Source: Macrostomum lignano (taxonomy: Eukaryota). Taken from it: DNA of 64,000 nucleotides. This document shows, one piece after another, positions 3,001 to 44,740 of the stretch. The DNA lies in assembly GCA_002269645.1 (NCBI GenBank), contig NIVC01001131.1:140979-204978 (forward strand), given 5' to 3'. The notes under the pieces were generated by a model. That model had not been told where the DNA came from and made no database searches. It saw nothing but the letters and a program-made list of their open reading frames with translations. How positions within the stretch are numbered: the stretch's first letter is position 1; each line of letters opens with the position of its first letter. The position numbers and the translations under genes were made by a program.

Positions 3001-3306
3001 ACCCCCCAACACGCGGGGGGTTTTATTTGAATTGAACCCAGAACACGCGCACCCACCACCCCTCAATACACAGCGGCCCGCGGGCGGAGGTTGGGGTGGC
3101 TATTTTTACAAACTGGCTGCAGCCCCAGTCAGAGTGACAAAAGAAGGTTATTGGGGGTCAAAAAATCAGTTTTCTGCTTTTTTGAGGATGTTAGAAATTA
3201 AAATTTCAGAATTAAAATAGCCTATAGCCGACCTCCGATAATTTCCAATCTTCCCATATAAGTTTCAACGCTGAGTTGCCACTATTCAAGGAGGAGTTGT
3301 CGAAAT

Positions 3307-3348
<42 letters not shown>

Positions 3349-6300
3349 GACAGACAAACAACACGTCAACTTTAGTATATATAGATAGACGAGTGGAACT
3401 CCTCCTCTGGAGGAGAACGGGGAAGAACTCTCATCACCGGAATTCTGAAGGGGAAGAACTCCCATCAGCTGAAATTCCATGACTTGAATCCCATCTTCCA
3501 AATAATCTCCAAATCCTCTACAATGCATTTCAATTACCGGATATCTTGTTTTCCCTAGTTGCAAAAACTCACTGGCATTGTCCAGACTCGGACTCTCATG
3601 TCTCTGCTCTCATTTCTCATATCTCATATCTTTCATATCACCCTCTCCTTTCTTATCTTCCATCTTTCTGCCCTCCTTACTACCGTCTCTTGTCACCTCT
3701 CTTTTCTCTCCTCGCCATTCTCTCTTCTCTCCTTTCCTTTTTCCTCTCATCTTCTCCCCTCTCTTCTCAAATCTCTCTCTCTCTCTTTTCTCACTTATCT
3801 CTTTTCTATTTGCATCTCTCATCTCTCATCTCTCTCCTCTCATCTGTACTATCTTATTTATCTCTTCTCCCAGGTCTTTCAAATTTACTCTCTCCTGTCT
3901 CCTTTCTCCCCTCGTCTCTCCTCTCTCATATCTCTTCTCTACTCACTTATCTATTCTCTCTACTCTGCTCCCCTTTTACACTTTCCTATATGCTCTTACT
4001 CTCACCCTCTCCTTTCTTATCTCCTGTTTTTTACACTCCTTTCTACCACCTGTCTCCTCTCGTTTCTCTCCTCTCTGCACTCTCATCTTTACCCTCTTCT
4101 TTCTCCTCACTACTTTCTTCTCTTAAATCTCTGATCTCTGATCTTTCATCTCTCTCCTCTCAACTCTCACCTCTCTCCTCTCTTTCCTCTCTTCTATTGC
4201 CTATGTGCGCTCTTATCCCTCTTTTCTTCTCTGTCCTGTCTCCTCTCTGCTATCTCATATCTCCTCTCTCATATCCTCTCCCTTCATCTCCTCTCTCCTC
4301 TTCTCTTCTCTCTCCTTTGTTCCCGCCTTACTCCCCTCTTCTCTCCCATCTGTCATGTCTAATCTCTCCACTCATTTCTACTCTGTTTTCTATCATCTCA
4401 TCTCTCTTCTCTTTTCATTCTTCTCTTTACTCTCTTCTCTGACTGATTGAAGATGCCAAATCCATCAAGATCCTCTCCGCGAAGCAGAAATCCTGTCCGT
4501 GCAACTGAAAACCATCGAAATCCTCTCCGTGAAACTGGACTCCTTCGAAATCCTCTCCTTGAAACTTAAATTCATCAAAATCGTCTCCATAAAACAGAAA
4601 TCAATCATAAATTATCTCCACGAAACAGAAATCCTCTCCGTGAAGCTGAACACCATCGAAATCCTCTCCACGAAACAGAAATCCTCTCCGTCAAAATTAA
4701 AACATTGAAATCGTCTCCGCTAAACTGGACTCAATCAATTTTTTTCCGTCAAACAACTCAACTCTCCGGATTCATTGGTTAGGGTTAGGGTTAGGGTTAG
4801 AACTACGCACAGCTTCGTGTTAAAAGGCAATGATAAAAATATTGAACTAATTGAATCAATTCACTGCGCAACCGATTTCACAGTCAGTCAGTATCAGTCT
4901 CAGTTAAAGTTAACAAAAGCATTGCGCAATCTAATCAACCCTCCAATACACAGCAGCAGTGAGAAGTTGAACCCTCCCCCCAACTTTATCTATTCGTCTC
5001 GCAAAACTGAGTACAATTTTTGCAAAGTTAAAAGTATGCAAATAGTTTTTTAAATGCTGTGCTTTTTCTTTTCATATTTAAAGCAAACAACTTATATCCC
5101 CGAACTCAGCGTTGCAAGATCTTTCCAGCAATATAAGTTTCTCCTCTCAAAGTTTAAAACTCGAGGAACAGTTAGCGTTTGAAATATCCCAATTTAAAGC
5201 ATTGAACTATCGAGTGTACGCATACGTGCACTGCCTGCTAAAAAGGCTTGCAAGTTTATTCATTGAATTCCACTGCCGCCCCAGCACCCTCAACACAGGG
5301 GGGGTTTGGTTAAGTTCTCAGTGCACACAGTTGTGGCGCAATCGCTAAAAATTGATGTCAACCGGCCCAGCTTACCCCCTTCAGTTGAAAGAATACACGG
5401 CACAGATATGCCGGCTGTTGTGGCGCAATAATTGTAAATTACGCAAGATGTTCATATTCCCCTATTGTTTTACTACTTCTGCTTTTTTAGTGATCTTAAG
5501 ACGTGAAAATAAAAAAATTGAAATAGCTTACTGCCATCCTCGGAAAATTTGCAGTTTTCCCAAATAAGTTTCAACGCTGACTTGCAAGTCGTCTAGGAGG
5601 AGATATGTATCACACAAACAGACAAACAACGCACCAACTTTAGTATTAACGAGGCCAACTCCTCCTCTGGAGGAGAAAGGGGAAGAACTCCCATCACCGG
5701 AATTCCATTCCCTGATCTCCATCAGCTGAATCCCATCATCTAACTGTTCTCCAAATCCATTAAAATCCTCTCCGTGAAACTGAACACCATCGAAATCCTC
5801 TCCGCGAAACAGAAATCCTCTCCGCGAAACTGGACCCAATCGAAATTTTCTCCGTCAAACAGAACTCAACTCTCAGGATTCATTAGTTAGGGTTAGGGTT
5901 AGAGCTGCACAGAGCTGCGGGTTGAAAGGCGCCGATAAAAATATGAATTAATTGAATCAATTTATTGCGCAACCGTTTTCTCATTCAGTCAGTATCAGGC
6001 TCAGGTAAAGTTAACGAAATGATTGCGCAATCTAAATCAACCCTCCAATACACAGCGACTGACCCCCTTCCGCAGTGGCAATTAAAAGTTGAACCGCCCC
6101 CCCCCTCCTACCAACTGTTGGGGGGTTGGTCGAACCCCCATTGAACCCCAAAATGAGTACAATATTTCCAGAAAGTAAAAGGTATGGAAGTTGTTTTCGA
6201 TCGCTGTGTTTTTTCTTTTCGCATTTAAAACAAACAACTTATATCCCCGAACTCAGTGTTGCGAGATCTTTCCAGCAATATAAGTTGAGTTTAGAACTCG

Positions 6301-9300
6301 AAGAACAGTTTGCGTTTGAAATGTCCCGATTTAAAGCATTGAAGTATCGAGTGTACGTTCACCTGCCTGCTAAAAAGGCTCGCAAGTTGATGCATTGAAT
6401 TTCAGTGTGCAAAAAATACACCGGGCTGCCTAATTGAAAATCAGAGCACATATCGTTGCGCGATTGTCTATACAGTCAGCCCGTGCGCCAAGGTCCAAGT
6501 GTACACACGCCGCCACTGAGAACGCAAGCACCCCCCACTGGAGAGAAAATACACTGCAGAGATAGGAGAAAGTTATGGCGCAATCGCTCAAAATTCATGC
6601 AAGTTTTCAGCTCCAAGCAGAAAGAGGGGACAAATAAGATTATCAAAGGTCAATATTGCAGTTTTTTGCTTTTTTCGGGATCTTAAAATGCAAAAATAAA
6701 AAATTGAAATAGCCCACTGCCATCCTCGGAAAATTTGCAGTTTTCCCATATAAGTTTCGACGCTGACTTGCAAGTCGTCTAGGAGGAGATATGTATCACA
6801 CAGACAAACAACGCACCACTTTTAGTATTTACGAGGCCAACTCCTCCTTCGGAGAAGAAAGGGGAAGAACTCCAATCAGCGGAATTCCATTCCCTGAACT
6901 CCATCAGCGGAATCCCATTTTCCAACACCTCTCCGCGCAACAGAAATCGTCTCCGTGAAACTGAACACTATCGAAATCCTCTCCGTGAAACTGGACTAAA
7001 TCGAAATTTCTCCGTCAAACAGCCCAGCTCTCAGAATTCATTGGTTAGGGTTAGGGTTAGGGTTAGAGCTACACACAGCTGCGTGTTGAAAGGCGCCGTA
7101 AAAACATTGAACCAATTAAATTGCGCAACTTATTTCTCAGGCAGTCACTATCAGCGTCGGTTAAAGTTAACAAAAAGATTGCGCAATCTAAATCAGCCCT
7201 CCAATACACAGCAACCGACCCCCTTCCAATACGCAGTGCAGCTAGAAATTGAACCCCCCTACCAACTATTGGGGGGGGGGGGTCGGTCGAACCCCCATTG
7301 AACTCCAAAATGAGCAAAATCTTTGCAGAAAGCTAAAAGTATGAAAATCTTTTCTTGAATGCTGTGAATTTAATTTTCATATTTAAAGCAAAAAACTTAT
7401 ATCCCCGAACTCATTGCAGCAAGATCTTTCCAGCAATATAAGTCTCTCCTCTCTAAGTTCAAAACTCGAGCAACAGTTAGTGTTTGAAACTTTCTGATTT
7501 TAAGCATTGAAATATCGAGTGTACGTTCACTGCCTGCTAAAGATGCTCGCAAGTTTATGCATTAAAATGCACTGAATTTCACTGTGCAAAAAATACACAG
7601 GGCTTCCTGTTAAAAAACAGAACACAAATAGTTGCGCAATTGTCTATAAAGTCAGCCAGTGAGCCAGGGTCCAATTGTACACACGCCGCCAATGAGAACG
7701 CGCCCATTCCCCCACAGGAGAGAAAATGCACTGGCGACATAGGAAAAAGTTGTGGCGTAATCACTCAAAATTTATGCCAATTTTCAGCTCCGAGCAGAAA
7801 GAGGGGACAATTAAGATTATCAAAGGTCAGAATTGCTGCTTTCTGCTTTTTTAGGGATCTTAAAATTTAAAAATGAAAGATTAAAATAGCCTAAAGCCAT
7901 CGTCGGAAAATTTGCAGTTTTCCCATATAAGTTTCAACGCTGAGTTGCAAGTATTCTAGGAGGAGTTATCGAACTGACATACATACAGACAAACAACGCA
8001 CCACTTTTAGTATTAAGACGAGTGGAACTCCTCCTTCGGAGGAGAAAGGGGAAGAACTCCCATCACCGGAATTCCATTCCCTGAATTATCCATCAACTGA
8101 AATTCCATGTCTTGAACCCAATCTTCCAAATAGTCTCCAAATTCTTTACAAAACCTTTCAAAGACCATAGCTTAAAGACTCTTACGTCTCTCATATCTAC
8201 TCTCTCCTCTCTTCGCTATTATCGTGACTCGCTTCTCTCTCCTCTCTCTCATCTCATCTCTACCCCTACTCTCTTATTTATCTCTACTCCCTTATTTATC
8301 TCTACTCCCTTATTTATCCCTTATTTATTCTCCCTCTCCTGTCTACTCTCCTATCTTCTATCTTATCTCTCCCCTTTTCTCTCCTCTCTCATATCTCATC
8401 TCTAATCACTTATCTATCGTCTCCGCTCTACTTTCCCTCATCCCTTTTCTCTCTTCTCTCTGCTCTCATTTCTCGTATCTCTTATACGCTCTCAACCTCT
8501 CCTTTCTTATCTCCCATTTTTCTTCCCTCCTTTCTACTGCATCACCTGTCTCCTCTCCTCTCTTTTTTCTCCTCTCCATTCTCTCTTCTCTCCTCTCATC
8601 TCCCCTCATCTCTTATCTAATCTCTAATCTCTTCTCCCTCATATCTCTTCTCTACTCACTTATCTATTCTCTCTCTTTGCTCCCCTTTTACACTTTCCTA
8701 TATGCTCTCACACTCACCCTCTCCTTTCTTATCTCCTGTTTTTTACACTCCTTTCTACTACCTGTCTCCTCTCGTTTCTCTCCTCTCTGCACTCTCATCT
8801 TTACCCTCTTCTTTCTCCTCACTACTTTCTTCTCTTAAATCTCTGATCTCTGATCTTTCATCTCTCTTCTCTCACCTCTCTCCTCTCTTGCCTCTCTTCT
8901 ATTGCCTCTGTACGCTCTTATCCCTCCTTTCTTTTCTCTCCTGTCTCCTCTCTGCTATCTCATATCTCCTCTCTCATATCCTCTCCCTTCATCTCCTCTC
9001 TCCTCTTCTCTTCTCTCTCCTTTGTTCCCGCCTTACTCCCCTCTTCTCTCCCATCTGTCATGTCTAATCTCTCCACTCATTTCTACTCTGTTTACTATCA
9101 TCTCATCTCTCTCCTCTCTCCTCTCTCTCTTCTCCTTTCGCTTCTCTCTCCTCTCTCTCCTCTCATCTCTACTACCTTGTTTATATCTTCTCCCTGGTCT
9201 TTTGTCTCTACTCTCTCTCTTGTCTCCTTTCTCCCCTCTTTTCTCCTCTCTTCTCTCTCCTCTCTCCCCTCCTCTCTCATCTCTCATCTCCTCATCTCAC

Positions 9301-11600
9301 TCTTTCTTTCTCCTCTACTCTCCCCTCTCTTCTATTACCTCTGTACGCTCTTATCCCTCATCTATTCTCTCTCCTATCATCTCTCTTGTCTCTCTCTGCT
9401 ATCTCATATCTCCCATCTCATCTCCTCTCTCCTCTTCTCTTCTCTCTCCTCCGTTCCCGCCTTACTCCCCTTTTCCCTCCCATCTGTCATGTCTAATCTC
9501 TCCACTCATTTCTACTCTGTTTTCTATCATCTCATCTCTCTTCTCTTTTCAGTCTTCTCTTTACTCTCTTCTCTGACTGATTGAAGATGCAAAATCCATC
9601 AAGATCCTCTCCGCGAAGCAAAAATCCTGTCTGTGCAACTAAAAACCATCGAAATCCTCTCCGTGAAACTGGACTCCTTCGAAATCCTTTCCTTAAAACC
9701 TGAATCCATCAAAATTGTTTCCATAAAACAGAAATCAATCATAAATTATCTCAGCGAAACAGAAAGCCTCTCCGTGAAGCTGAACATGATCGAAATCCTC
9801 TCCGTGAAACTGAACACCATGGAAATCCTTTCGTGAAACTGAACATCATCGAAATCCTCTCCACGAAACAGAAATCTTCTCCGTCAGAATTTAAACATTG
9901 AAATCGTCTCCGCTAAACTTGACTTAATCGAATTGTTTCCGTCAAACAACTCAACTCGCCAGATTCATTAGGGTTAGGGTTAGGGTTACGGTTAGGGTTA
10001 GAACTACGCACAGCTTTGTGTTAAAAGGCACAGATAAAAATATTGAACTAATTGAATCAATTCATTGCGCAACCGATTTCTCAGTAAGTCAGTATCAGCC
10101 TCAGGTAAAGTTAACAAAAACATTGCGCAATCTAAATCAACACTCCAATACACAGCAGCAGTGAGAAGTTGAACCCTCCCCCCAGCTTTATCTATTACGT
10201 CTCGCAAAACTGAGTACAATCTTTGCAGCAAGTTAAAAGTATGGAAATAGTTTTTTCAAATTCTGTGCTTTTTCTTTTCATATTTAAAGCAAACAACTTA
10301 TATCCCCGAACTCAGCGTTGCAAGATCTTTCCAGCAATATAAGTTTCTCCTCTCAAAGTTTAAAACTCGAGGAACAGTTAGCGTTTGAAACTGTCTGATT
10401 TATAGCATTGAAGTATGGAGTGTACGTTCACTGCCTGCTTGCAAGTTGATGCATTGAATTTCAATGTCCAACAAATACACAGGGCTGCCCATTGAGAGGC
10501 AGGAAAACTTATCAGTAGCCATATCATTGCGCAATTATCTATACAGTCAGCCAGTGAGCCAGGGTCCAAGTGTACACACGCAGCCACTGAGAACGCTCCC
10601 ACCCCCCACTGGAAAGAAAATACACTACAGAGATAGGGAAAAGTTGTGGCGCAATCACTTGAAATTCATGCAAATTTTCAGCTCCAAGCAGAAAGAGGGG
10701 ACAATTAAGATTATCAAAGGTCAAGACCGCCGTTTTCTGCTTTTTTGAGGATCTTAGAAATTAAAATTTCAGAATTAAAATAGCCTATAGCCGACCTCGG
10801 ATAATTTCCAATCTTCCCATATAAGTTTCAACGCTGAGTTGCCACTATTCAAGGAGGAGTTGTCGAAATGACAGACACACAGACAGACATACAGACAAAC
10901 AACACGTCAACTTTAGTATAGAGACGAGTGGAACTCCTCCTTCGGAGGAGAAAGGGGAAGAACTCCCATCACCGGAATTCCATTCCTTGAAATCCATCAG
11001 CTGCATCCCATGACCCGAATCCCATCTTCCAAATTCTTTAAAAACATTTCAAAGACCATAGCTCAAAGACTCTCACGTCTCTCATATCTCCTCTCTTCTG
11101 TCTTTTCTATCCTTTCTATTCTTTCTTCTCTCCTCTCATTTTCTACCTTCTCTAATCTCTCATCTTTTCTCTCCTATTTTCTCACTCTCTTTTCTCATCG
11201 CATCTCTCATCTCTCCTCTCTGCACTATTATCTTTACCCTCTTCTTTCTCCTTACTGCTTATTTCTCATAACTCTCACATCTTTTCTGATCTTTTTTCTC
11301 TCTCCCTTCTCCTCTCTCTTCTCTCTCCTCTTTCTCTTCTCATCTCTACTCCCTTTATCTATCTCTTCTCCCTCGTCTTTCGTCTCTACTTTCTCCGCTC
11401 TCCTCTCCTCTCTCCTCTCTCCCTTCTCCTCTCATCTCTACTACCTTATTTATCTCTTCTCCCTGATTCCCTGGTAATTCGTCTCTACTCTTTCCTGTAT
11501 CTCCCCCCTCTTTTCTCATATCTTCTCTCTCCTCTCTCAACTCTCATCCCTCATCTCACTCTACTTTCACCTCTACTCTCTCCTATCTTTTATTTCCTTC
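1..11600. repeat. Tandem array of six composite 1.1-2.9 kb repeat units (heads near 1, 2375, 4755, 5865, 7025, 9950)
   Basis: Each unit repeats the same ordered blocks: ggattcattg-(TTAGGG)n-ttag head; block with cttatatccccgaactcagcgttgcaagatctttccagcaatataag; block ending acagacaaacaac..ctttagtat; hairpin ctcctcc-N3-ggaggag; optional CT-rich tract; ~30-bp atcgaaatcctctccgtgaaactgaacacc repeats. Confidence 0.9.
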
Positions 11601-12169
11601 CTATTGACTTTGACAATAAATTATCTCTTGTAGACATTCTGATCAATGCTTGGCAATTGGTTGCTTTGATGATTTCTTTGCATTAACTGGTTTTTCGTAC
11701 TCCATATTGCTTTCCCTGTGGAGCTTTGCAATATCCTCTTAAATCCTTGCACTCCTGTCACTCCCTCAGCATTTGAAATATCCCCTCAGAACTCTGCACC
11801 CCTGTCACGATCCCTCACCATTTGAATATCTCCAACGAAGATATTCTCATTCGCTAAGTAATTTCGTTTAAATGATTTAGGCAAGTTGGAAACGAAAGTT
11901 ATTAATTGAATTTTTTAGAAAAAGGCCTCAACACGTGTAAATTTCAAGATTTCCTTCCCTTCTGGGCCTCATTTTACGAAGCCACATGCGTTCAGTTATG
12001 ACTTAAAAGGCGTTTTAAGGCGTTTTGCATTGTGTAGAAGCAGGTTTAAAGTTAAAGTTTAGCAATTGATTTGAGATTTAGTATATAGTGATGATATAAG
12101 CTGTAATAATCATACATTGATGGAAATTTGTGAAGAAATTTGAGATAGATAGATAGAGAGATAAAGCCT

Positions 12170-12590: not shown

Positions 12591-15500
12591 GCTCTCTTGG
12601 AAACGCCGGCTTACGTATCTAAAGTGGTAATTCACACCGCGCCGCTACCTGACGCGGCAATGCAAAGCGCTCTCAACCAATTTATTATTTATGCTGGCGG
12701 AAGAACTTGCTATAGTCATAATGCAGCATCTTCATTCTCCAGTCGATCGTTTCCGTGCGACACGTTCACCGATTACATCGAGTTGAGCAGCGATAGAAAG
12801 GATTCCGTAATGTCCCTGTGCGAAGTGGAAGTCTATGGAAAGGCGCTTGCGTTCCAGGAACTCGAAAATGGAGCTGCGTAAGTTTGGGAAATTGCTCACA
12901 ATTACGTAAAATAGTGGACCAAGGATGACTAACGTTTTTAGTATTAGCACATACTTTGTAGTATTGCGAAAATAATTGAGGCGTGAAACGCGGTGGTTCG
13001 TTTGCTTTAATTTTTCTTTAATTGTTTTCCGTATGGAAAAGAAGAGAGACTTGAGTAATTGCGTGTTAGGGTGCTGTATATTTATATACGTGTTGAAAGA
13101 ACATTCCGGAATCCGGAAAGTTCGAGAAGCAGTTTCAAGAAGGGGGTGCGCGGGAGTTCAAAATACCAAATATAGAAAGTGTGTGTTTACGCGGAAGTTT
13201 CTAGAATATAAGTATTGTACTTACTGTACGCTATCTTATACCGTATACACGCGTTGTTTAGTTGGAGAACTTTCTAGAATACGAAGATTTAAGCATGTTA
13301 TAGAATATTATAGAAAATAGAAATACGCTACAATACTTATAATATAGTAAATACGCTACAACTACACCATTTCTGTATATAATCTTTACGAAGTTGAAGT
13401 AACACTCGGCACAAGAACGTGTATCGCTTTTTATATTGATAGATTCACACTTTCTTTGAGTTTGATTCACATTCACACTATTAGAGCTTTTTCAAGAAAG
13501 TCTACTGAGGGCGCATAAATGACAGGAAAGTTTATGTTGTTCCTATCTACCTCGTACCTAGGGTTTTTTTCTTTCTTGTCTGTTTTTTGTCAATCAAAAT
13601 TCGCATATAGTGAGACGTCTACCGGTTTTAAAGTCGATGGATATGCAACGATGAACAGGTAAATTTATGCACAGCCATTTTGATCGCAGATCAGTATTAA
13701 ATAGTTAATACTGTTTGAAGGGCTCCTTGTTTTGGTTGTTTATATAAACTTTCAACTTCGAATTCGTCAAAAACTAGTTATAATTCGACGAAGTGAGTGA
13801 AATAGGTCACTTTTTATATACTCGAAGCCATGGGTGTGTATTAAAATGTAAAAATGAATGCACAGCGAAAAATGGAATGCAGATAAACCAAAAAAAAAAC
13901 TGAAGAACCGTTCCCTAAGTAAGTCAACGCTAGTCGAAATGATAAGTCTGTAGTATTTTGACACGAAGCATCAATCAAAAATGTCAGTGTAGGTCAAGCA
14001 GTGTGGGCTGTAGCGGAATTACTATTGTTACTCTACAACTAGACATTACGAGCTGCTCCACCATATAGCACTAGGATTAGCTGCGTGCATGCCTGACGAA
14101 CTCGAAGTTGAAAAATCATTTAACACTGCTTAGCTTAACAATACTACCACAGAAAATAATAGTAATTGCCACAATTGTTTAGTCACCCAGAGGCAATTCC
14201 TTCGGCGACATCGTTCCACAACCAACGGTGAGGGAATCCTGTCCTGAGCAAGCGAACCAATACACTCACTACACTCACCAATACTTCATAAACACGCTCG
14301 TACAGAGTGTACGGCAAATTATCAGTGTATATAGTTACGAGCGTATATATATTTTTTTGCACTCTAACATAAGTAGTAGGAAAGTGGTACCCTCTACCGC
14401 CATCGCACGGGATTGGCCGGGGCACCCGGCCAATGAGAGGAGAGCTAGGGCCCTTAAAGACGCCTACCCCGACCCCAGACCCACCACCGCCACGCACCCA
14501 CCCCCGACCCAAGACCCAACACCGCCACGCACCACCCCGACCCAAACCGGGCCCCCCAAAGATGCCCACCCCGACCCCAAACCGGGCCCGCCAAAGACGC
14601 CCACCCCGACTCCAAACCCACCACCGCCGCACCTACCTCCGACCCCAAACCGGGCCCCCCAAAGATGCCCACCCTGACCTCAAACCGGGCCCCCTCCTGT
14701 CCTGCACCCCATCCCATACCAAGGCCCCCTACTGTCCTGCGCCTTGCTCCATCCCATATAGCAAGGTCCTTCTATCCTGTACTCTAACCAAAACCAATTC
14801 CGCCCTCCTAATTCCTAAACCTAGTCTTATTACCTGTCTCACTTACCGCCTTTAAAGCTAGCCAAGGCAAAACCCTCATTCCATGCTTTGGTTGTACTCT
14901 ATCTTGCTGTGGCGGGTACAGCGTGAGGTCGTTAGACCTAGAACGCTACTTCTTGGCGGCCAGAGGGCCGCAAGAAGGTCCCGTCACCTCCTGTTACGTT
15001 GATGACTGAGACTTTGTTAAGGCCTGAGTTCCTGCGAAAGGACTGCTGTGTGGGAGTTGGATTCGGGGTTCGGATTGGTTATTGCTATGGAGCGCGAGCT
15101 GGTTTCTAAATGGCTGAGTGGTCCCCGGAAGGGCTCTTGATTTGCCAATAGTTCCTGCCAGAGGGCTGTTGTGTGGGGTTGGATTCGGGGTTCGGATTGG
15201 TTATTGCTATGGAGCAAGAGCTGGTGTTACTTACCAACTCCCGTCGTATATAATCTCGCGCACAGCCGGAAGGAAAGCTCACAGTTTTTGACAGTGAACA
15301 AAATGAACTTTAAGACATTATCGAACAGATTTCGAATCGGCGTCAGGTCGCACTCGAAGTGCATCAGCATCAGAAAGTGGTACAAATTTGCCGAAGAGTA
15401 TCGACCAGGTCTGCCTGGCATGGAGCTCACCATCCACCAGTTTTGCCACTTGGGCAGCCTGAAGGAACGACTGGAAGAGTTTGCAAGAAAGTGTATCGAT

Positions 15501-18500
15501 GCGCAATGCCTTCCTGGCGGCAACAGGCAAGTGGTTGTGCAAAATGGCGTAATCACACTCTGGCGCCTTCCAACTGTACTCGGACCGCCGGTGCACCTAA
15601 GGCACGCCTTACCGCTTCCTACAACACTTTGGCGCGAAGTCTGGGCTCAAAAGCAATGGGTCCTAGACAAAATTGACAAGCGAGAGCCTCCGGTCGAGCC
15701 ACCGATCGGCAATCCATGGTGGATGGGATACCACCCTACGGAGCCTGAAGAGTGTGCAGCATGGGCAGCAAGGCTTACACTCGACCAACTGATGCAAGTA
15801 CCTGACAGGCAGCCGGCAGAGTGGGACCACCACTGGGAGGCCTTCCAGGTAGTTCAGGCTGAATTTAGAAAGAGATTTACATTCGAAACTCTGGAAGAGC
15901 CACCAAAGCTGAGAAGAACCTACAGCCTTCATTCCACCAGCCACCAATGAAGCGACGCGCAATGCATGAAGCGACAACTGGTCATTTCGTCAATTAACTT
16001 TTTTTAAATATAGTTTTGAACCATAGTACTGATTATGCACTGTTGTATATATTGCTTTGTCAATACTGGCCATAATATTGCCCCATCATGCTTTGATTCC
16101 GGGCGATAATACTGTTTTTGTAAATACACGCGACGGGCCTTAATACTGCCCTTCCATTCTTCGTAAACTTTTTTGTGCTAAAACGAGCTTTAAACACGTA
16201 ATTTTATGCTTTGCAATCCATGGACCTGCCAATAAAATAAACAAAACAAAAAACATTTCATTTTCGTAAGCATTGTTGTACAAACACTATAGTCGCATTC
16301 CCGTTTATTTTTTCTTATCTTTTGTACACAAAAAATACAGAAGTAAAGTTATAGGAAAAATATTATTATTATTACTCAGTGCATAGGCAGATCTCACTAC
16401 TACTGTTATGCCGTAGAGGAGCTCAATCAGAGTCCAGCAAAGTAGGTTCGGATGCTTGGTCTGCATGCAAAATGCGGGAGAGGGCATCAGCTGCAGTCTG
16501 AGCCTCAACCACGCTGCGAGCGCCAGCTATTATACAACGATACGAATGAAACAAAATCAACTTTACAGAGGCATTAAACTTGAGCACAAGTCCGTTAAAC
16601 ATTTCCGGCTCGTAGGTGGCCCGATGCGGCCATTTAGACTTGACTTCCCCCAACCGGAGTGGATGCCGACCCGCGGAAAAGGCCGTCACAGAGGTAATAG
16701 TCTTGATGCAAATCTGGGGCAGACTGGTCAATCGCAAGAAGTCCGCACACAGCCTCACAATATTCTCCGTCTCTGCGAGAGCCTCCTCCATGCTTTTGGC
16801 TCCACAGACAGACACTTGTCCGGTCGGATACACCAGCGCGGTTACTCGATGCTGCCCGCTCTTCATCACCACTGCCAGTGTTCGAGGATGAACCAGGCGA
16901 TGGCGGATTGTGTGATACTGAGGCAGATGAAGTGTCAGGAAATTCGCTAGTTGTGGCAGACCCACCCGGGTCGCCAGGTCGGCTCCTGTCACGATGTTTG
17001 TCACGCGAATTGTTGCGACCATCTTTAGACAATCGAGAGAAACGCCAGTGCCTGCTGCAGATCGCTACTTTTATAGACCCGTAGCCGCGAGGCCGCAGCC
17101 AATCAGCGTACAGCGCCACTTTGGCCAGGGCGCAGGTTAGCACGTACTTTGAGGCACTCGGAAAGGCTAGGTGTGCTAGGTCGTAGACAGGCTGCAGCAG
17201 CAGACGCGACAGGAACTGGCACTTGACATCCCCCTTGCTAAATATCGGGCCTTGCAAGTGAGAGATATCGCTCCAGAGACAAGAGTAGGGTCGGAACCCA
17301 CTCCTGTCCCAGTCTAGACCGTGCCGCTTATTGGTGAGCCAGTAGCAGGTTCGTCGCTGTCCTCGATCAAAGAGCTCAAAGCTGTGCGGCGGTCGGTAGC
17401 AATAGTAATGAGCCGTCGTTTGACCGCATGCAAACTCAACCCATGCAATTTCTTAATCACAAAGTCCTCTGTTTTGTAGAGGTGCGGAAATCCTTCAAAA
17501 TCATTGACAATCATCTTGGCCACTTGATCCACTTGCCGTATCCTTTCTGAGACTGAGTCTTCTTATAGCCTTGCAGTCGAGGTTTTTTAGGACTGGAATT
17601 TTCTTCCCGAGGCTTTTCCAGCAATTTTGTAGTGTTCAGACCAACTGCAGACAGAGGCACGTGGTTTTCTTGAAGACACGTAACAAACTCATTAATCCCA
17701 TTCGGTGGCTGAAGGTACTTAGAGTACGTATCTTTAACTATGAAATGCAGCAGGTCCACGATTTTGAGTTGTACAACGGTTTACCATTGACAGAAACTCC
17801 ATACGTATCATCTATGCTAATCGACTTGCACTTTATGGTTATGAAGCTAATCAATGCCTGCAGACGATGATGCCATTTCTGATTCACCGTCAGATATAGC
17901 ACCTCCTTCCACTGCGGTTCTTTGTGAATTACTGGAGTTCTTGGGTCGCACTTGCCTGCAGCTGCTGCAGGCAACGCTCGTCCCTATTCTTGCGCAACTG
18001 TTTTTCCGCCTCTAGCTCGGGTTCACAGACTGTCTCCATGCCCCTCTGATTCACAAGTGCCTCATACTGCAACCGGGGTACCAGTATCATTTCCTTGTAC
18101 ATGTCTTTTTATACAGGTGAGAATCAGAGGAAGACAACGAAGGATGTGCGGGTGTGAGAGATTGCGCCGAGCCTTTTTCACACTTTTGCTTTGTGCAACA
18201 AGCCGGAGAGTATTTCGATATCGCCTGAGTCTCCGCTTCAAGCTATCTTCACAGCCAACTTTTCCTGCTAGTAAGTTGATAATACACTCGACCAAACAGC
18301 AAATGGTGCTTTTATTTGCATAGGTAAGTATGCAGCGACGCAAGGATATAGTGCCCTCACAAAAGACAGTTATTAGTGCAATGTGTTTATTCATGTTTAA
18401 CTCAGTGCAGATACTGAGCCATTCTTATAGATAAACTCGCTGCGGGGCCTCATCGGGGAGAAAATTGGCTCTCAGGCGCAGTTCATGGGGCGAAGCGGGG

Positions 18501-21500
18501 TGAAAATCAAGCAGCAGATAGCGCTGATCTCCATCTCGCACCAATCGATCCATCAGTTCTACTAGCAGAGTGCGCCGTTTGGGAAAGCATTGCTGACTTA
18601 AAGCTTGGACCGCAGAGGTGTCTCTGGGGTTATTGAACAACACCATGTAGGTGCAATTTATGCTAATTGTGCGCCACTCTCTGTCTTTGAAAAATAGATT
18701 TTGCGTGATGAGAATGACAAAGCAGGGCTTGTGGTGGGCCTCACCGGTGAACAGATGTCGTAGCTCTCGACTTGCAGCTGCTTCATCCAGTAAATCGTCA
18801 ATCACAATCAGGTCATGGGGCTGCAGATCCAAATTCGATAATCCTTCACATACTTGCACTCCTAGCCGCCGCAGAGTCGCGTGGAGTTCCGGCTGCGGGC
18901 ATCCGTGATACCAAATCATCCGCTTGGGAGGTTGGTCGAACAGAAGCAGTCGTTGGGACAGCAACCGCAAACAGAATGTTGATTTTCCCGCTCGAGAAGT
19001 GCCCGAAACCATCATGCAGCTGCCCATCCGCAGTCTGGAATCAAACACCTTGCAACTGATTTTTGAGTCTGAGTATGATTGCATCGTTTTGAGCCACAGC
19101 TGCCGGGTGCAAAACCTTGATGAACAAGGCATTATATGACATTCTCTTATGCAGTCGATGGATCAAGTAAAAAATGCAATACCAGCCGCATAGAGTTGAC
19201 GAACTGGGCTCAACAGGGCCCGTATTCCATTGTAGCACCATCCGCGTTGGTTTAGTTTTCTTTAACCAGCTCTTCATATTTTTACTCAAGCCTCCCAAAG
19301 AGTTGAAAATTTCACAATGCACTTTACTGGTTACTACTCCAGCAATCCAGTGACCGCACTCATCATTCCATGGCTCATACAAAATGAAGCAGCAGGGTCG
19401 GCAGGTTGAATCGAAAAATGGTGTCACTGTTCCAACTGTAAAAATTCCGCAATAGGCATTCCGCACAGATGTGGGGCAGCGAGAAATGAACGCTTCCAAC
19501 TCTTCGGAATTCATGCTCTGCGATAATCCAGCAGCACATCTCTCTCTTTAGTGATTTCCATGCATGAATCATACACGCACAAGCAGATGAGTGTGACTGG
19601 CTGTGCGAGAGCGTTGGAAAAGCGAATATCCAGTCGTAGTTGACCCTGCCTATGACCAAACCAGCTGCCTACTTCATCACCACTTGGACTAAGGTCAAAA
19701 GCAAGCAGATAGGCACTATCTCGATATTCATCAAAGCTCATGCAATAATTTCCACCGAGACTGCGAGCAAACTGCAAAAATTCGGATGAGTGCTGCTGCT
19801 GTGGTTCTATGGCTGCCCAGTAATTGGCTCTCCATTGACAAACAGGCTTAAACTATTCAATCCAAATGCTTGGAACCAAAACGGGTTGTGGTGCAGAGAT
19901 CCATTGAAAGCTGTCTGGCTGACCATTCCAAGGAGCACAAATTTTGGCAGCTGACCATGCGTGATTGAATCGAGACTCTTGTTTCTTGTCCTAACAGAAA
20001 ATGTGAATGTCTGTAGCTCTCTTCTATCAAAGTGGTATAGAGCATTACGTTGTGAGAGCCCCTGCTCATGTGCGAGAGCCACTGTTGAGTTTACTCGGAG
20101 ACGCCTCAAAAGCAGAATAGCATTGTCGACTTCAACACGGTATTGAACTCCATTATTGGGTACCATCAACGAAAAAGCGCTGCAATGCCGGGTCAGTTTG
20201 ACCTGCAGGCTGATTTGGTTTAGCAGATACTGCCGGATTGAGAAAATGTCTGAAAACAACGGGCCGGCATATTGCACAACAGCAGAAGCCTCATGCAATC
20301 TCGCACGATTTGTGAATCCATGATTTTGCTCCCCAATGGTGTCACTCTCTCCAGCGGTGTCTGGATAATAACCTGCGGCCGCCAGTTCTTGAAGCTGGTT
20401 GGCAGTGCTGCTGGTCAGCACTTGAAGCATTGCTCGATATGGGTAGAGCTCGTCCCCACCACTCACAACCCGCTGGTTGAGTTTTACAGTGACATCACGA
20501 AACAGGCTGGCAAGCGGGAGATTCGATAGTCCGACATGGGCATCATCTTCATTAGTCAGCTCTGCATTGTTTATCACACGAGTTATCCGGCAAGTGACTT
20601 GCAGCACTGTGGCGTGCAGATCGGTGTAGTCCTCAGAGGAGGCGTGGCAGTCGAATTCAATCGGTGCATCAGGAGTCGTGAGACTGCCGATGGGATGAAA
20701 GTCCATGAAGTGAGACCTATCCACTCCAATTTCATGCGTCTTTGGCTCAAACAGGTTGAGCCGTGGATTTGTCCGATACATTATGAGAGTGAATCGAGCA
20801 CTCGGTTGACTGTTTTGTATGATATCTTGCGCTTTTTTGTGGGCACTGGCTTGCTCTTCTTTGGTTTGATTTTTGGCGTTTTCTTATGTTTTTGCTGCGA
20901 TGGAGGTGGTATGCGGGAAAGGAGAACTGCATTTTCATGAGTCTCAGGGGGCAGTCAGGATAGCAGCGATGTGGGATATCCGTGCCCATGAGGAAGTTTG
21001 AAGCAACTGCCTCGATAAAACTCGGTCACTTGTCGAATGTCCATGACTCACGCAGCTCTCGGAACTGGGTGTTGCAAAACTCTTTTCCACGGTCGGTCCG
21101 AACTGCTCGTAGGCATCGAGGGTGAGCTCGATTTAGGATCGCTTCGAATCCGGCTGCAACCTCCTCGGCTGTCTTGCGGCGCACCGGCTGAGCCCAGGCA
21201 AACTTGCTGAGCACATCGATGCAGCATAAAATGTATCGCATGCCGCCATTGTACTTGGCGAACAGCAGCATTTCAACAAGGTCCAGTTCCCACTGGTCAT
21301 CCATGCCCCGCACCACAATCGGTGCTCGACGAAAGTTTTTGCGTTTATCTCTATGCAGTGCGTAGACATCTTGGTCTTGGAGCCACGTTTTTACCTTTAA
21401 TTGTAAAAACTGGAAATTACTAGCTAGTGGATAAAACTAAAAGCCTAAGCAGGAATTTTCTAGAAAATCATTGGTTCAGGAGTATATCGTATATGCATAC

Positions 21501-24500
21501 CTGCCCTACACTAAACTTGGGTCCGTGCTGTTTGTGAAACTCTTGTTTTAATGCCTGATAGCCGCCATAGCTGCCCGGTCTACTGCAGTCAAAATAAATA
21601 CCTGGCAGAATTTTGGAAATTGCCTTTTTCTTTTTCATTTTACCAAATTTCTAGTACCTATCATTTTCTTATGCCAAACACCTGGCTTGAAAAAAAAACT
21701 ACCCACTCCCACCCATTTCTGCGGATTTAGCGTTTCTAGCCTCTGTTGTGCACGAAAAATCATGCATTTTTGCATAAAATACATACATTTCAATGGGAAT
21801 TTTTACCCGAATGTGTGCACGAAAAACCTCGACACTTTGCATACTTTTTAACACTGTGCACGAAAACTTGCATACTTGTGCACAAGATACATGTATTTCA
21901 ATAGGGATTTTTACTCGAACCTGTGCATGAAAATTGACGCATGTTGTCAAAAAAGTCACGTCATATTGCGCACTTTTAATCACTGTGCACGAAAACTTAC
22001 ATACTCGTGTACAAAATACATACATTTCAATGAGAATTTTAACCCAGAGATGTGCACAAAAATGACTCATTATGGTAAAAATACTAATGTGAAAGAACAA
22101 TTTTCTCTCCTGCAGTGTATCAAATATCATTAAGTAAAGGATGGATTTATTATTATTCAAAATATAGTATATTCGCATTAAATTCACATGCATATAGTTA
22201 AAAATTAAAGATATGTGAAAAGAATGTTATTGTGAGAAAAAGAGCTTGCTAGTGTCCAGATCGCACTGGCCGACACTGGCTTGTCATCTTGAGAACGTGC
22301 ACCAGAACTAAATCCCGGTTGAAAATCTTCTGGTCGCGGAATGCTGACTTGGCCACAGGCTTTGAATTGACCAGTCGGTAGCTCACTTGCTTGCGAACAT
22401 TCTCGATGGTCTACAGGGAGTTGTTTAGCGGCCCGTTGTCTTTCTTGAACTCATTCTTGGCCTTTTGCACGACGCTCCATGCGGTAGATAATAAACAGCG
22501 GTCGACACGTCAACACACCGAGTGGTCCTGATTTCCCAGCAACTGGCATTGCGTAGGTACTTCTCTATCCGGTTGAGGATAGTCTGCATGTCGTCAGAGA
22601 AGTATTGCTCCTCCTCACTCCGAATAAGAGAGTGGACCTTGGCAGCAAACCAGGCGGTGTTCTCGGCGGCGCAGCGGCCATTAATGATGCGCTGCGTCAG
22701 GACCCCGAGGCGCAGCTGAACCTTGATGGCGGTTCCTGGCTGAAGTTGATGCTGGGTGATCAAGTCAATGAAAGCTTGACGAGTGCTTTCCAACAAATTC
22801 CTCGGGTCGCCGCATGCACTGGCCCGGTAAAGTCGGGACCTGCCATTAAACGCCTCCTTGATCAGTTGAAAATGAATCGTTGGGGAGTCATCTGACTCAA
22901 ACAGTGCTGGTATCGCAGGGCATACCGCATAGTGCTCCTCAATGCCCCCGGTTACTGATGACTCGCAGAAGTCGCAAGTTATTTGCATTTTTGTTGTATG
23001 TTAAATTTGATATAAAATAAAAAAATCTATGGGGTCTACTGAGTCCCGCGTGCTTTGTTTATAAAGGGTACTGGACCCCGGCTCCTGCGGGTTGTGTTGA
23101 CCAACCAAATCGTGCATCAGGGACCACTCGACCAATAGAATTCCTTCTCGACCAATAGAATTCTTTCCCCACATTATACTCGGAAATCACTTCAAATGCT
23201 TGCTCGACCAATAGAATCCCTTCCCCTCTCTACTCGGAAATTCCAAGCAATTGGACCCTCTACCCGTTGACCGATCACATTGAAACTCTGTGTTGCGTGT
23301 CACCACATGCGGTAGAGGATACTCAACAATGGACACTCATTCACATCTCAAAACTCACCCTTGAACACTCACTTAACTCACCCTTGGACACTCAACAGAC
23401 ACTCAGCTGCCCAACCCGTCATCTGGCCTGCTCAACCGGCCTGCCCGACCCCACCCTTGGCCTGATTGACCCCCTCATTCGGCCTGCCCGACCCCACCTC
23501 TGTGCCTGCTCGACCCTACTTCTAGGCTTGCTCGACCCCACTCCTGGGCTTGCCCGACCCCAACCTGGGCTTGCCCGACCCCTTTCTCCGGCCTCCGGTA
23601 TGGGATGGTGTGCTGGACAGAAAGGGGCCTTGGTATGGGATGGGGTGCAGGACAGGAGGGGGCCCGGTTTGGGGTCGGAGGTAGGTGCGGCGGTGGTGGA
23701 TTTGGGGTCGGGTGGGCGTCTTTGGGGGCCCGGTTTGGGGTCGGGGTGGGTGCGTGGTGGTAGTGGGTTTGGGGTTGGGATTGGGTGCGTGGCGGTGGTG
23801 GGTTTGGGGGTCTGGATTGGGTGCGTGGCGGTGTTGGGTTTGGGTCGGGGTGGGTTTGGGGTCGGGGTGGGTTTGGCGTCGGGGTGGGCGTCTTCGGGGG
23901 CGCCGTCTCCCCTCATTGGCCGGGTGCCCCGGCCAATCCCGTGCGATGGCGGTAGAGGGTACCACTTTCCTACTACTAACATGAAATGAGCACAACTTTT
24001 AGAGAATAAGTATAGGATTGAATCTTCGAGTATATATGTATTTGATGCAAAATGAGAATCATTACTCTTCATAGTTTATCATTTCAACGAGTTGCTTTCT
24101 AAGATTTGTCGTCTATTTGAAACAGTAGACACCCGCAATAATCTTTTTAGCGAAATTCCGATCCGCAGTTGCTCAACATCAGTAGACAGACATTTAGGCA
24201 TCTGTGGATACGCTTTTGACCGCAACTTTGCCGTATTCAATGGCGAACATGGTAAAAAGTGCCTTGACATCCCGAGCGACAAATCTGCAGAAGGCGCTTG
24301 GATGCACGTTTTCTTGAGAGGGTCGGCCCTTGTAAAGCACGTCAAGCTCTTCAACCGGATGGACAAATGCTGTAAAAATAGTCTGAACCACTTTACTCTT
24401 TACATTAGTTACTATAAATGCGCAGAACACATTGATGCAAATCCATTTGTTACGAAAATCTTTAATTGCATGCGGTTCGGCCATCACGTGAAAGTGGTCT

Positions 24501-25134: not shown

Positions 25135-25990
25135 ATTAGCAGCTATAATTTTTTCCTCTATTTTTATTTTTGAGAGTGTGTCGGTCCTTAACAGAAGAGT
25201 ACCAAGCTAACATAGAGAGCCAATATAGCTAATAGCTAAGCTGAAGCACAAAATCCCAAATCCTCGGGCTTCTAATTTTCGACCATAAGCCAAATTATAC
25301 AACTAGAAATGATCGCATGGTTGCTGATTTATAATGAGTATATATATATATATATATGATTATGATACAATATACATATAATATATATGCGATTTGAAAG
25401 CAACTAGCTGTTTATGAACGTGCCACAGAGAATGGATTTCGGCTTCCGCTTTAATACTAGTAGCAGTATTGGCTCTCTATATGTTAGATCCCGATACTAT
25501 TTGTCCGGACAGTGATGTTTTATTTTTGAGGCAAAACATACCTGCAATTAATAACTCGAAACAGCTGTAGGTTAACAGAAAATTCTGTACTCTTATTAAT
25601 GGCATTTGCTTACTGGAGATTATAAGTGAGCGGTCATTTTTTATTTAAATTCTGTATTATTCACTGTCTTCCCACGGTGTCCCATGACCTGCCTCCATGT
25701 ACATTTATTTATAAAGTGCTCATTATCATTAAAACAAAAATAATTTGTGACTAAGCACTACAGTCAGTTAAATAAATTTCTTTCCTAAGAGTTTCTAACT
25801 GGGCAACACTTCGTAAATGTACTTTCATTTTTAGTAGTACATACTGTACGTCTGAATGTGACTTTGAAAGTACACAAAAACTTGGTGATCTCTCAGTTCT
25901 TTGTAAGGTTTTTAAAATAAATAAATTAAAACAAGATGTTATAGTTTCCTTTCTTTTTTATTCATAATAATATTAATAATAATTTATTAG

Positions 25991-26270
25991 ACCTGCCCTA
26001 ATAACCAGATGTGCAACCGACAGCTCAGCCGCAGCTATTGCGCGGCGCATCTGAAGGCTGCGTACGGCTGTTCAGTCCAAGAACTGGGGGGGGGGGCGCC
26101 CCACACACCCTCAATTACCCCAGCTAATGCTGGCACCCATTTTACAGCTGGGTGAACCGAAGCAATGCGGAGTTAAGTTTCTTGCCCAATGACAAATTGT
26201 TTCAGTGGGGATCGGGAATCGAATCGTGTTTAAGTCGTGAGTCCTACGCTCTAACCACTAGGCTACAACC
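25991..26270 (-). mobile_element. tRNA-derived SINE
   Basis: On the minus strand: A-box-like tagcctagtggtt and B-box-like ttcgattcc head, ttcacccagctgtaaaatgggtgcc core and a conserved 3' tail ending attagggcaggt. Six related copies in the window. Confidence 0.85.
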
Positions 26271-26761
26271 CCGTTTTATTGAAGAATTGTATAGTAATAC
26301 CGACAGGTGATCCAGTCGAAAAATTTAACAATTTTAAACCGTGTGTGAAGTACATCGATTAATTGTTAATTTTGAGTGCCGGCGTTCTATGTTCGAACAG
26401 ATTTATACTTCATTCTGAAATAGCTGCACTAGCTGGGAATTGTACAAATATGAAAATTCGACAACTCTGTAGGACACAAGGATTTTAGCCGAGTAAACAA
26501 TGAAAAAAGATTGCTAAAACGAATTAAAATGTTATTTAAAACTTTGCGGGTTTTTGGTTTTAACAGTTTAATCCACCCACTTGTATGTGAAAGTAAGAGG
26601 AGTTTTTTGGAGTTATCCAAGTAATGGACGGAGTTGTCATTGAATATATGGATATCTTCAATAACACCCAGATATTCAAACTCTAAAGAATTTATTAAAT
26701 TAGATTCAAAGGCTTGATACACTACCTTTTTAATGTCTTCGCAGCAGGAGACAGTCTTTAT

Positions 26762-27040
26762 GGTTGTAGCCTAGTGGTTAGAACGTCGGTCGGGAGTTCG
26801 ATTCTCTACCTACTCGGAACTACGAGTATTTGTCCCGAAGCAAGACACTCAACTCTGCATTGCTTCAGTTCACCCACCTGTAAAATGGGTGCCGGCATTT
26901 TCTGGGGTAATTGAAGGTAATTGAGCTATGTTGGCGACCCCTCCAGTCCTTGGACTGAACAGCCGTACGCAGCCTTCAGATGCGCCGCGCAAAAGCTGCG
27001 GCTGAGCTGTCGGTTGCAAACAATTTAATTAGGGCAGGTG
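26762..27040 (+). mobile_element. tRNA-derived SINE, same family, opposite orientation
   Basis: ggttgtagcctagtggttag...gttcgattc head; cttggactgaacagccgtacgcagccttcagatgcgccgcgc tail. Confidence 0.85.
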
Positions 27041-27268
27041 CATTATATTCAAATTTTAGTATATTATTGCATTTCTTAAATTAGTTATGGTTATTATTGG
27101 TCGTAATATTCTTTTATATATATATGTCTATGTCTATACCTATCAAAATGCTAACATTCATTTTAAAAATGCAAAAATTGCACACTAACTTTTTTAGACA
27201 GCTTTTTAGTTGTTTCACAAAAACATTAAGCCAAAACATTGAATTGTGCTAACTAAACAGTTAGTACA

Positions 27269-43377: not shown

Positions 43378-43671
43378 CACCTGCCCTAATTAGCTAAAAC
43401 CTAATGGGCAGATGTGCAACCAACAGCTCAGCCGCAGCTATTGCGCGGCGCATCTGAAGGCTGCGTACGGCTGTTCAGTCCAAGGCTGGGGTCGCCACAC
43501 AAACCCTTAATTAGCCCAGTTAATGCTGGCACCCATTTTACCGCTAGATGAACTAAGGCAATGCAGAGTTAAGTGTCTTACTTAAGGATACAAATTGTTC
43601 CAGTGGGATCAGGAATCGAACCCCCGACCTTCAAGTCGTGAGTCCTACGCTCTGACCACTAGGCTACAACC
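43378..43671 (-). mobile_element. tRNA-derived SINE (counterpart of 25991-26270)
   Basis: Same head, core and tail. Confidence 0.85.
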
Positions 43672-44221
43672 CCCATTTCATTGAAGACTAGCTTGTAATA
43701 ATATAGACAGGTGATTCAGTTGAACAGTTTGAAATTTGAAACCGTGTCTAAAGTACATAGATTAATTGTTAATTTAGAGTACGGGCGTTCTCTGATCTCA
43801 CAGATTTTATACTGGAGTATAGCTGCACTTGGAATTTTACAAATATGAAAAATCACCAATTCTGTAGGCGCTTGATGTTTTCAGCCAAGTAAATAATACA
43901 AGTGTCGCTAAAATTGATTAAAACTATGCTAGCTATTTAAAATTTAGCGGGTCTCCGGTTTTGACAGTTTAATATACCCACGTACATGTACGAGTAGCTA
44001 GAAAGAGTTTTTGGAGTCATTTACATGTAAGTATAGAGGATCTGAGTTGTTGTAGAATATATATAGATATCTTCAATAGTACCCAGATATTTAGAACTCT
44101 ACAGAATTGAATAAATTAGATAAGGAGGCTTGATACAGTACCTTGTACCAAGGACCACTAGGAACACTTTGTTATATAAGGACGTTATCCTAGTAGTCCT
44201 TGCCTTGTACATGTCTTATTG

Positions 44222-44495
44222 AGTCTTCGCAGCAGGAGACCGAAGGTCGGGGGTTCGATTCTCATCCCACTTGGAACAATTTGGGTTCTTAAGCAAGAGA
44301 CTTAACTCTGCATTGCTTCTGTTCACCCTGCTGTAAAATTGGTGCCAGCATTTGCTGGGGTAATTGAGGATGCGTGTGGCGACCCCCCCCCACAGTCCTT
44401 GGACTGAACAGCCGTACGCAGCCTTCAGATGCACCGTGAATAGCTGCGGCTGAGGTGACGGCTGCATATCTGCTATTTAGGGCAAGTGTAATAAA
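44222..44495 (+). mobile_element. tRNA-derived SINE (counterpart of 26762-27040)
   Basis: ggggttcgattc B box, same core and tail. Confidence 0.8.
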
Positions 44496-44740
44496 TAATT
44501 ATTATAATACATTTCTTAAATTAGTTATGGTTATTGGTCGTGCTGACGTCACGTATACTTTTAATATTAATTTACATTCCCTCTGTTTAAATAAAAGGGA
44601 CCCCTAAGTAACAAAAGATATATATCTATGGTGCAAAAAGCCATCAAAAATGCTTACATTCTATTTAAAAAAATTCACACTGACTCTTGACTGCCTTTTA
44701 GTTGTTTCACAAAGAATTAAGCTAATAAACAGTTGGGGCA

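Follow-up and report, generated by a model that had tools for sequence, protein, structure and literature searches.

As far as the accessible portions of Starrett et al. (2021; PMC8502044) describe them, Mavericks, Polintons and adintoviruses carry terminal inverted repeats (TIRs) beginning with AGT, a 6-bp target-site duplication (TSD), a protein-primed polymerase B (pPolB), a retroviral-like integrase (rve), a packaging ATPase, a protease and a putative capsid gene. The same set is found in a deleted Maverick of Macrostomum lignano, within a 64,000-nucleotide stretch that we analyzed (hereafter the window; GenBank assembly GCA_002269645.1, contig NIVC01001131.1, positions 140,979 to 204,978 of the forward strand). 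This element also contains an intact gene for a member of the TATA-binding protein (TBP) family, which is the subject of this study. In the accessible portions of Starrett et al., 'TBP' occurs as a one-word figure label for related MELD viruses, within a passage about non-animal data sets and without analysis (PMC8502044, bioRxiv 697771); here, by contrast, the gene is fixed in two high-copy animal families and is accompanied by analyses of selection, protein surface and promoters. That figure-legend label was the only mention of a Polinton, Maverick or adintovirus TBP found in our literature search, which had subscription journals and Repbase outside its scope, and the accessible text of one supplement of the same paper contained no mention of TBP. 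A mention of TBP in PMC10675990 was set aside because it concerns mirusvirus-like repeats and not Polintons. Searches on Polinton late promoters with TAAG, and on adintovirus TATA boxes or promoters, found nothing, and no description of a Polinton PC4 was among the matches listed. As far as these searches reach, a single figure label, without analysis, is all that has been published on TBP in a Polinton-like virus; the word 'undescribed', used in an earlier note on this DNA, was therefore too strong.

Several described TBPs invite comparison. The element protein resembles the cellular TBP/TRF family (PF00352) in its two repeats, predicted saddle, C-terminal phenylalanine pair, residues N69, V71, T112 and L114, and the EPE motif of the TFIIB stirrup, but differs in its low identity to host TBP (26%), a replaced N-terminal phenylalanine pair, changes at N159, V161, V203, T124 and T215, and a lost TFIIA stirrup. 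The herpesvirus proteins ORF24, BcRF1 and UL87 are virus-made TBP-fold proteins that direct host RNA polymerase II (Pol II) to non-canonical late promoters, and ORF24 has extra domains, acts in a six-member viral complex and is predicted to be incompatible with TFIIB binding (accessible portions of PMC12529657, PMC4893493 and PMC7498053, the ORF24 details being from PMC12529657). Unlike these, the element TBP is a bare core of 199 aa that keeps the TFIIB site and goes with a TAAG-type rather than a TATT motif; the resemblance is one of analogy and not of membership. In large nucleocytoviruses, the TFIIB-contact positions of TBP have diverged and a viral TFIIB is often present (PMC7221094, in its accessible part). 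A BFVD search with the element TBP matched large-virus TBPs, and the two kinds of protein appear to share a viral TBP fold and, in the window element's own family (family A), an unconserved N-lobe regulatory patch. The element TBP differs from the nucleocytovirus proteins in keeping both glutamates and in its Maverick context, and no match to the TFIIB family was found among 15 window frames and 12 family-B or host frames. To our knowledge, Mavericks have no RNA polymerase. Baculoviruses use their own, which starts inside the TAAG of the late promoter (A/G/T)TAAG; the candidate element boxes described below likewise place a TAAG core before structural genes, but lie mostly 30–70 nt before the ATG in the manner of a TATA box.

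The gene under study and its poly(A) signal are:

16423..17022, minus strand: element-encoded TBP of 199 aa, intact from ATG to stop with no intron needed, identified by Pfam, PDB and a fold model
16304..16309, minus strand: AATAAA poly(A) signal of the TBP gene, ~115 nt beyond the stop

The PF00352 profile matched this open reading frame (ORF) in two stretches (E = 2.1e-20; score 72.8 bits, cut-off 22.9), and all 35 matches in a PDB sequence search were TBP-containing chains (best E = 5e-10). An AlphaFold2 model from a 114-row alignment had a pLDDT of 92.5 and a pTM of 0.84, although that alignment contained TBP rows and a single-sequence fold without an alignment was poor (pLDDT 55.6). Foldseek placed yeast TBP (1tbp) first against the predicted saddle (E = 6e-14, TM 0.71), and an ESM Atlas search returned generic TBP clusters only. 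By sequence match and model, the product is a member of the two-repeat TBP-fold family, and the earlier description of an intact, intronless two-repeat ORF with a poly(A) signal (16309-16304) inside the TIRs is borne out.

Next, we asked how widely the gene occurs. A genome search with the TBP scored 150 of 193 candidates, of which nine rows were second pieces of a locus and were dropped. It gave at least 141 loci, 37 in family A (61–100% to the query) and 104 in a second family, B (34–40%), and these figures do not give copy number: genes that are single-copy in the host show up on three contigs, so that one locus can be present up to three times in the assembly, and the element tallies may be as much as ~threefold too high. 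For the host TBP and a TRF2-like gene (L031, L032), for instance, a single open frame holds the core, and three contigs give identical scores for each. An ATPase search scored 150 of 374 candidates (nine second pieces dropped), so the linkage counts are lower bounds. An ATPase of the same family lay <4 kb upstream on the same strand in at least 25 of the 37 family-A and at least 77 of the 104 family-B TBP loci, that is, in at least 102 of 141, with the TBP gene 1–2 kb behind the packaging ATPase. Conversely, among the candidates scored, a TBP gene stood behind 25/28 family-A and 84/99 family-B ATPases, and behind none of the 14 ATPases of a third family, C. The order major capsid protein (MCP)-protease-ATPase-x-exo-TBP, in which exo is a nuclease-like gene, was the same in the window and in all three family-B stretches, and in the two family-B stretches that still have pPolB, it lies beyond TBP. 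Six family-C stretches from different copies (L060-L065), which run from pPolB to beyond the protease with left ends not seen, gave a best TBP-profile E of 0.26 and no exo or PC4-like match. Family C is also set apart by an ATPase only 34–38% alike, a different gene order, a dUTPase and a TTATAAG[CT] box before several genes.

The public gene models of the host list element TBPs (P0004, P0044, P0165, P0168, P0169) as 'hypothetical protein' or 'TATA-box-binding protein', one of them fused to an ABC transporter; host TBP-family counts may be inflated as a result. The names of near-identical proteins (95% and 99% matches) likewise point to M. lignano as the host. Relatives are also present in public environmental samples (P0002, P0003, P0005, P0006, P0048, P0166, P0167). 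Two scans of viral contigs confirmed none of 7 and none of 54 candidate stretches. In Joint Genome Institute (JGI) metagenomes, 6/191 candidate stretches were confirmed (24–39% identity); of the two that were read, one had a giant-virus-like and one a prokaryote-like context, and neither was a Maverick. Contigs covering the TBP from 4 of the 24 listed sequencing runs (guessed to be RNA) also span 16–30 of the 30 bins of a 6.4-kb stretch and may represent DNA or read-through, and none of the listed holders of the sequence was recorded as RNA.

Besides the TRF2-like gene, the host genome encodes a canonical TBP (PF00352, E = 4e-71). The element TBP scored 56 bits against the former and 26 bits, not a meaningful match, against the latter. 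In a 58-row tree, which has long branches and rows hand-selected among the matches, the A-like and B-like TBPs, including seven public-sample proteins, formed one clade (support 98/87) outside the group containing host TBP and TRF2, and a giant-virus-like TBP (L054) fell elsewhere, apart from the element clade. An approximately unbiased (AU) test rejected a clade with host TBP (p = 0.011) and did not reject one with the TRF2-like protein (p = 0.081). The protein is thus neither closer to TRF2/TBPL1 nor grouped with it in the tree, and the gene may have been captured long ago from the TBP/TRF family.

Nei-Gojobori ratios of nonsynonymous to synonymous divergence (dN/dS) were 0.26 for family B (15 genes, 105 pairs) and 0.48 for family A (17 best-scoring genes, 136 pairs), the latter resting on a dS of 0.047 and hence weak. 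These ratios indicate purifying selection, and TBP is, on the sequence evidence, a long-standing gene of this Maverick lineage. We considered and rejected positive selection on the family-B C-terminal repeat, where dN/dS was 0.2 and 25/105 pairs were saturated. Family-B alleles (L033-L050) are mosaic: L037 and L038 differ by a dS of 0.08 in the N-terminal repeat and of 1.7 in the C-terminal repeat, and L043 is nearest L037 in its first half and nearer L042 in its second. Recombination where the two repeats join may contribute to this mosaic, as may dual coding.

To describe the surfaces, we mapped 16 element proteins (four A-like, one of them partial, and 12 B-like) on host TBP; residues carry yeast numbers, taken as host plus 23, with the contact roles presumed for cellular TBP. 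The C-terminal phenylalanine pair is kept (F142 and F158 in the query; yeast F190 and F207). The N-terminal pair is replaced, by L49 (or T48) and Y65 in the query: yeast F99 becomes L in family A and P or W in family B, and F116 becomes Y. The four intercalating phenylalanines of a canonical TATA-binding TBP are therefore incomplete, in the pattern that the earlier note had described, but the asymmetry that it drew from this does not extend to the whole DNA surface. The C-terminal repeat is also re-tooled, with 2/11 base-facing sites equal to host TBP against 5/10 in the N-terminal repeat. N69, V71, T112 and L114 are as in the host. Families A and B, only ~35% alike, share the non-host residues Q68T, F116Y, T124C, Q158K, N159T, V161T and V203K; V203 is presumably one of the three sites in the altered-specificity mutant TBPm3. 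Among strand sites, 10/14 DNA-facing but only 1/14 core-facing positions are ≥90% identical between A-like and B-like proteins (p = 4e-4). DNA-facing sites that outlast core-facing ones argue that the face has not stopped binding.

On the C-terminal stirrup, E186-P187-E188 is invariant (16/16 element proteins), and the two glutamates are the TFIIB contacts according to the accessible text of Ravarani et al. (PMC7221094). The TFIIA stirrup has none of five positions identical to host in the query, and the basic helix-2 patch one of six, so that the query lacks the basic N-lobe patch and TFIIA stirrup of a canonical eukaryotic TBP; the suggestion that the protein serves as a TFIIA decoy becomes unlikely. 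Family B retains basic residues on helix 2 and family A does not. An N-terminal extension is absent. Judged by sequence, the element protein is not a canonical TBP, and altered promoter specificity, also anticipated earlier, is the best reading of the shared non-host DNA-facing residues.

We then inspected the upstream regions of the element genes, in which four boxes stand out in the vicinity of TBP:

15247..15253, plus strand: canonical TATA box (TATATAA) of the PC4-like gene, 56 nt before the ATG
17068..17075, minus strand: canonical TATA box TATAAAAG of the TBP gene, 53 nt before the ATG, at the same place in 26/30 family-A loci
17099..17103, plus strand: CCAAT box of the TBP gene, farther upstream than its TATA box, ~80 nt before the ATG
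17560..17567, minus strand: TATAAGAA motif, a candidate element promoter, 51 nt before the exo ATG

The motif [CT]ATAAGA[AG] lies 33–65 nt upstream of the integrase, the ATPase, a 110-aa ORF and exo in the window element. The shorter form TAAGA[AG] occurs 20–85 nt before 4/9 starts in family A (P = 6e-4) and 4/9 in family B (P = 5e-3), at sense-to-antisense ratios of 7:1 and 10:0, and before 0/9 and 0/9 starts in two sets of the TBP-less family C. The simple proposition of a TAAG box restricted to the TBP-bearing families nevertheless had to be rejected, for family C carries TTATAAG[CT]. A residual pattern remains in the three lineages, in which family C keeps the TATA half, and in the TBP-bearing families this half has drifted (CATAAG, CTTAAG), with GA[AG] fixed after it.

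We consider it probable that the element TBP is an early-made promoter-recognition factor of the element's own, which would read element promoters and recruit host TFIIB and Pol II. Host TBP would transcribe the family-A TBP gene early; the element TBP would then bind TAAG-type boxes and dock host TFIIB, bringing host Pol II to the later genes of the virion module, whose transcription would run outside TFIIA/TFIID control. Such an early-to-late switch would resemble that of the herpesvirus TBP mimic, from a bare TBP core of 190–200 aa. This reading builds on the fold, the position in two families, the purifying selection, the DNA face, the TFIIB glutamates, the loss of the TFIIA surface and the motifs; binding, timing and activation by the element TBP would follow from it. 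A more specific version, which we hold tentatively and at somewhat less than even chances, is a minimal switch: one captured TBP, its saddle re-programmed, would recognize TAAGA-type promoters to which host TBP responds poorly, would rely on the TFIIB and Pol II of the host, and would have the PC4-like protein as its cofactor.

Several points weigh against a dedicated promoter factor. In family C, a TTATAAG[CT] box precedes 4/9 and 4/9 starts, and a TAAG-core box in this TBP-less family means that such a box does not need the element TBP. The motif was selected by visual inspection of families A and B, the start codons were chosen by us, and three lineages only were compared. In both of these families, the 85 nt ahead of the MCP and protease starts are free of the motif. 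The family-B TBP gene is behind TTAAGAA in both loci scored, without a canonical TATA box, and the 'early TBP' step can thus be argued for family A only. A plant TBP has been solved on a G(-26) TATA variant (1qn5, according to its title), which implies that host TBP can sit on TATAAGAG. Only 2/10 phosphate-contact residues are identical to host, and these changes may weaken DNA binding. To these is added the weak family-A dN/dS.

The strongest of the competing explanations, though an unlikely one, is an anti-host or repressive factor that sits on TATA-like promoters (of the host or of early element genes) or holds TFIIB, and so dampens transcription. Invariant TFIIB glutamates combined with lost TFIIA and helix-2 surfaces in family A could yield unproductive complexes, and TAAG boxes occur also where TBP is missing. 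A pure protein decoy, however, needs no DNA face fixed at 10/14 sites with new identities, a TFIIA decoy is hard to reconcile with 0/5 stirrup matches, and >100 open-frame copies persist in the host genome. Rather less likely still is a role in element-DNA binding outside Pol II initiation, such as TIR bending for replication or integration, or genome organization for packaging, perhaps together with the nuclease-like neighbour. The conserved DNA face would suit it, as would the tight linkage and frame overlap of TBP and exo in both families and the failure to see either gene in the six family-C stretches; such a role does not demand invariant TFIIB-binding glutamates, however, and family C multiplies without TBP. 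We regard as improbable a general booster that acts on ordinary TATA boxes without sequence preference, replacing limiting host TBP (e.g. in germ cells) or escaping Mot1, NC2 or TAF1. The retention of N69, V71, T112, L114, F190 and F207 agrees with it, and loss of the basic N-lobe patch, which family A has undergone, is proposed in the accessible part of PMC7221094 to let viral TBPs evade host regulators, but fixed changes affect the residues central to base reading (N159T, V161T, V203K, T124C) and family B keeps its basic helix 2. Finally, the idea that host TBP or TRF2 was recently copied into the element as a neutral retrocopy, the case in which the earlier note would have fallen, can draw on the missing introns and on the deep TRF2-like link left by the AU test, but is refuted by the distance from both host genes, the rejected host-TBP clade, the fixed place in two families with dN/dS well below 1 and the relatives in unrelated public samples.

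The element that hosts the TBP gene is a deleted Maverick, bounded as follows:

14372..23977, no strand: Maverick/Polinton (adintovirus-like) copy of family A, internally deleted, 9,606 bp, defined by TIRs, TSD and gene content
14372..14730, plus strand: left TIR, starting AGTAGTAG, followed by C-rich sub-repeats; inner edge approximate
23600..23977, minus strand: right TIR; inner edge approximate
14366..14371, plus strand: left copy of the 6-bp TSD, AACATA
23978..23983, plus strand: right copy of the TSD, AACATG, a 5/6 match to the left copy (chance 0.005)

The terminal 66 nt are identical between the TIRs, and the element ends are AGTAGT; long AGT-starting TIRs and a 6-bp TSD, here matching at 5/6 positions, are those of a Maverick/Polinton. 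Its other genes are:

15303..15950, plus strand: PC4-like ORF, 215 aa, with a PF02229 match (E = 6.5e-4) of 19.6 bits, short of the 25-bit cut-off
16634..17514, minus strand: DEDD-nuclease-like ORF exo, with the motif IDF[EQ]GF and a frameshift near 17450 in the window copy
18062..18394, minus strand: small ORF, 110 aa, no assigned function, with TATAAGAA upstream at 18429-18422
18425..19132, minus strand: packaging ATPase, frame open, with CATAAGAG upstream at 19151-19144
19041..19514, minus strand: cysteine protease, frame open, weak PF02902 match; the family-B homologue matches PF00770
19511..20781, minus strand: putative MCP in two frames, with a break near 19807-19852
21026..21638, minus strand: retroviral-like integrase, fragmented and truncated (rve E = 6e-10), with CATAAGAA upstream at 21673-21666
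22425..22988, minus strand: N-terminal remnant of pPolB, recognized by an alignment chain to intact pPolB

The integrase is represented by its rve fragment in the window and by rve plus a chromodomain in family B. The pPolB, present as an N-terminal remnant only, aligns (45%) with the beginning of a frame of 838 aa from a different family-A copy, the later part of which is 45% alike to family-B pPolB, itself 33–38% alike to the PF03175-positive pPolB of family C. A packaging ATPase and an adenain-like protease are present, with P-loop matches below the cut-off and a family-B protease that passes PF00770. The putative MCP had no match in Pfam or PDB searches; its identity is proposed from its size, position and homology (29–46%) across three families. 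Between its integrase and MCP, the window copy lacks an equivalent of the minor-capsid-like gene found in family B, probably through deletion.

The earlier note had contrasted the intact TBP with the decay of pPolB and integrase. Both are indeed truncated, but the cut in pPolB is inherited: an open frame of 191–194 aa is common to 16/54 pPolB matches and to many family-A copies, and the copies with this shortened pPolB are, by sequence, a non-autonomous sub-lineage that spread after polymerase loss. Because the ATPase and protease frames are open too and the pPolB truncation is shared, an intact TBP gene in this single young copy is no argument for selection.

The PC4-like gene, earlier proposed as a partner, does travel with TBP in both TBP-bearing families (family-B homologues at 27–34% identity), but its PF02229 match is weak, and the protein may equally be a single-strand-binding protein of replication. 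The name exo comes from its motif, and Pfam and PHROG searches gave no match. Family-B exo ORFs are at L051:3264-4115, L052:5812-6657 and L053:3254-4099. In both families, the tail of exo (an ORF of 281–300 aa where whole) overlaps the TBP promoter and first TBP repeat in another frame. The overlapping frame is open for 104–128 codons in 18/18 TBP genes tested (simulation P = 0.004–0.02 each, non-independent within a family), and in family B it ends at the junction between the two TBP repeats. The closest Atlas clusters to the exo domain (L053:3620-4099) are arthropod proteins without names (0.95–0.97); a Maelstrom cluster at 0.87 is no more than a lead towards a possible tie with piRNA defence.

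Within the element, internal direct repeats lie at 15040-15230, upstream of the PC4-like gene and containing ATTGG (CCAAT) words, and at 21700-22100, where an AT-rich array separates the integrase from the pPolB remnant. Outside it, a dispersed host repeat occurs in both orientations (25981-27049, 43415-44504, 49810-49894 and 57528-57754), and strongly skewed stretches with repeat-like ORFs occupy window positions 1001-5000, 8001-12000 and 38001-39000.

In the literature searched, no paper was found on the timing of Maverick genes or on an early/late programme in animal copies. The present finding identifies a factor by name and adds a candidate promoter box and, in a family that lacks the factor, a natural control, all of them in what is, by protein names, a laboratory flatworm. 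Few proteins are as conserved as TBP, and a variant with a fixed, different DNA face and an intact TFIIB site bears on TBP evolution and on orthogonal promoters. If true, the minimal switch would be smaller than any other viral late-transcription system of which we are aware; endogenous Mavericks would keep a timed virion-making programme, and the element TBP would be a natural altered-specificity TBP.

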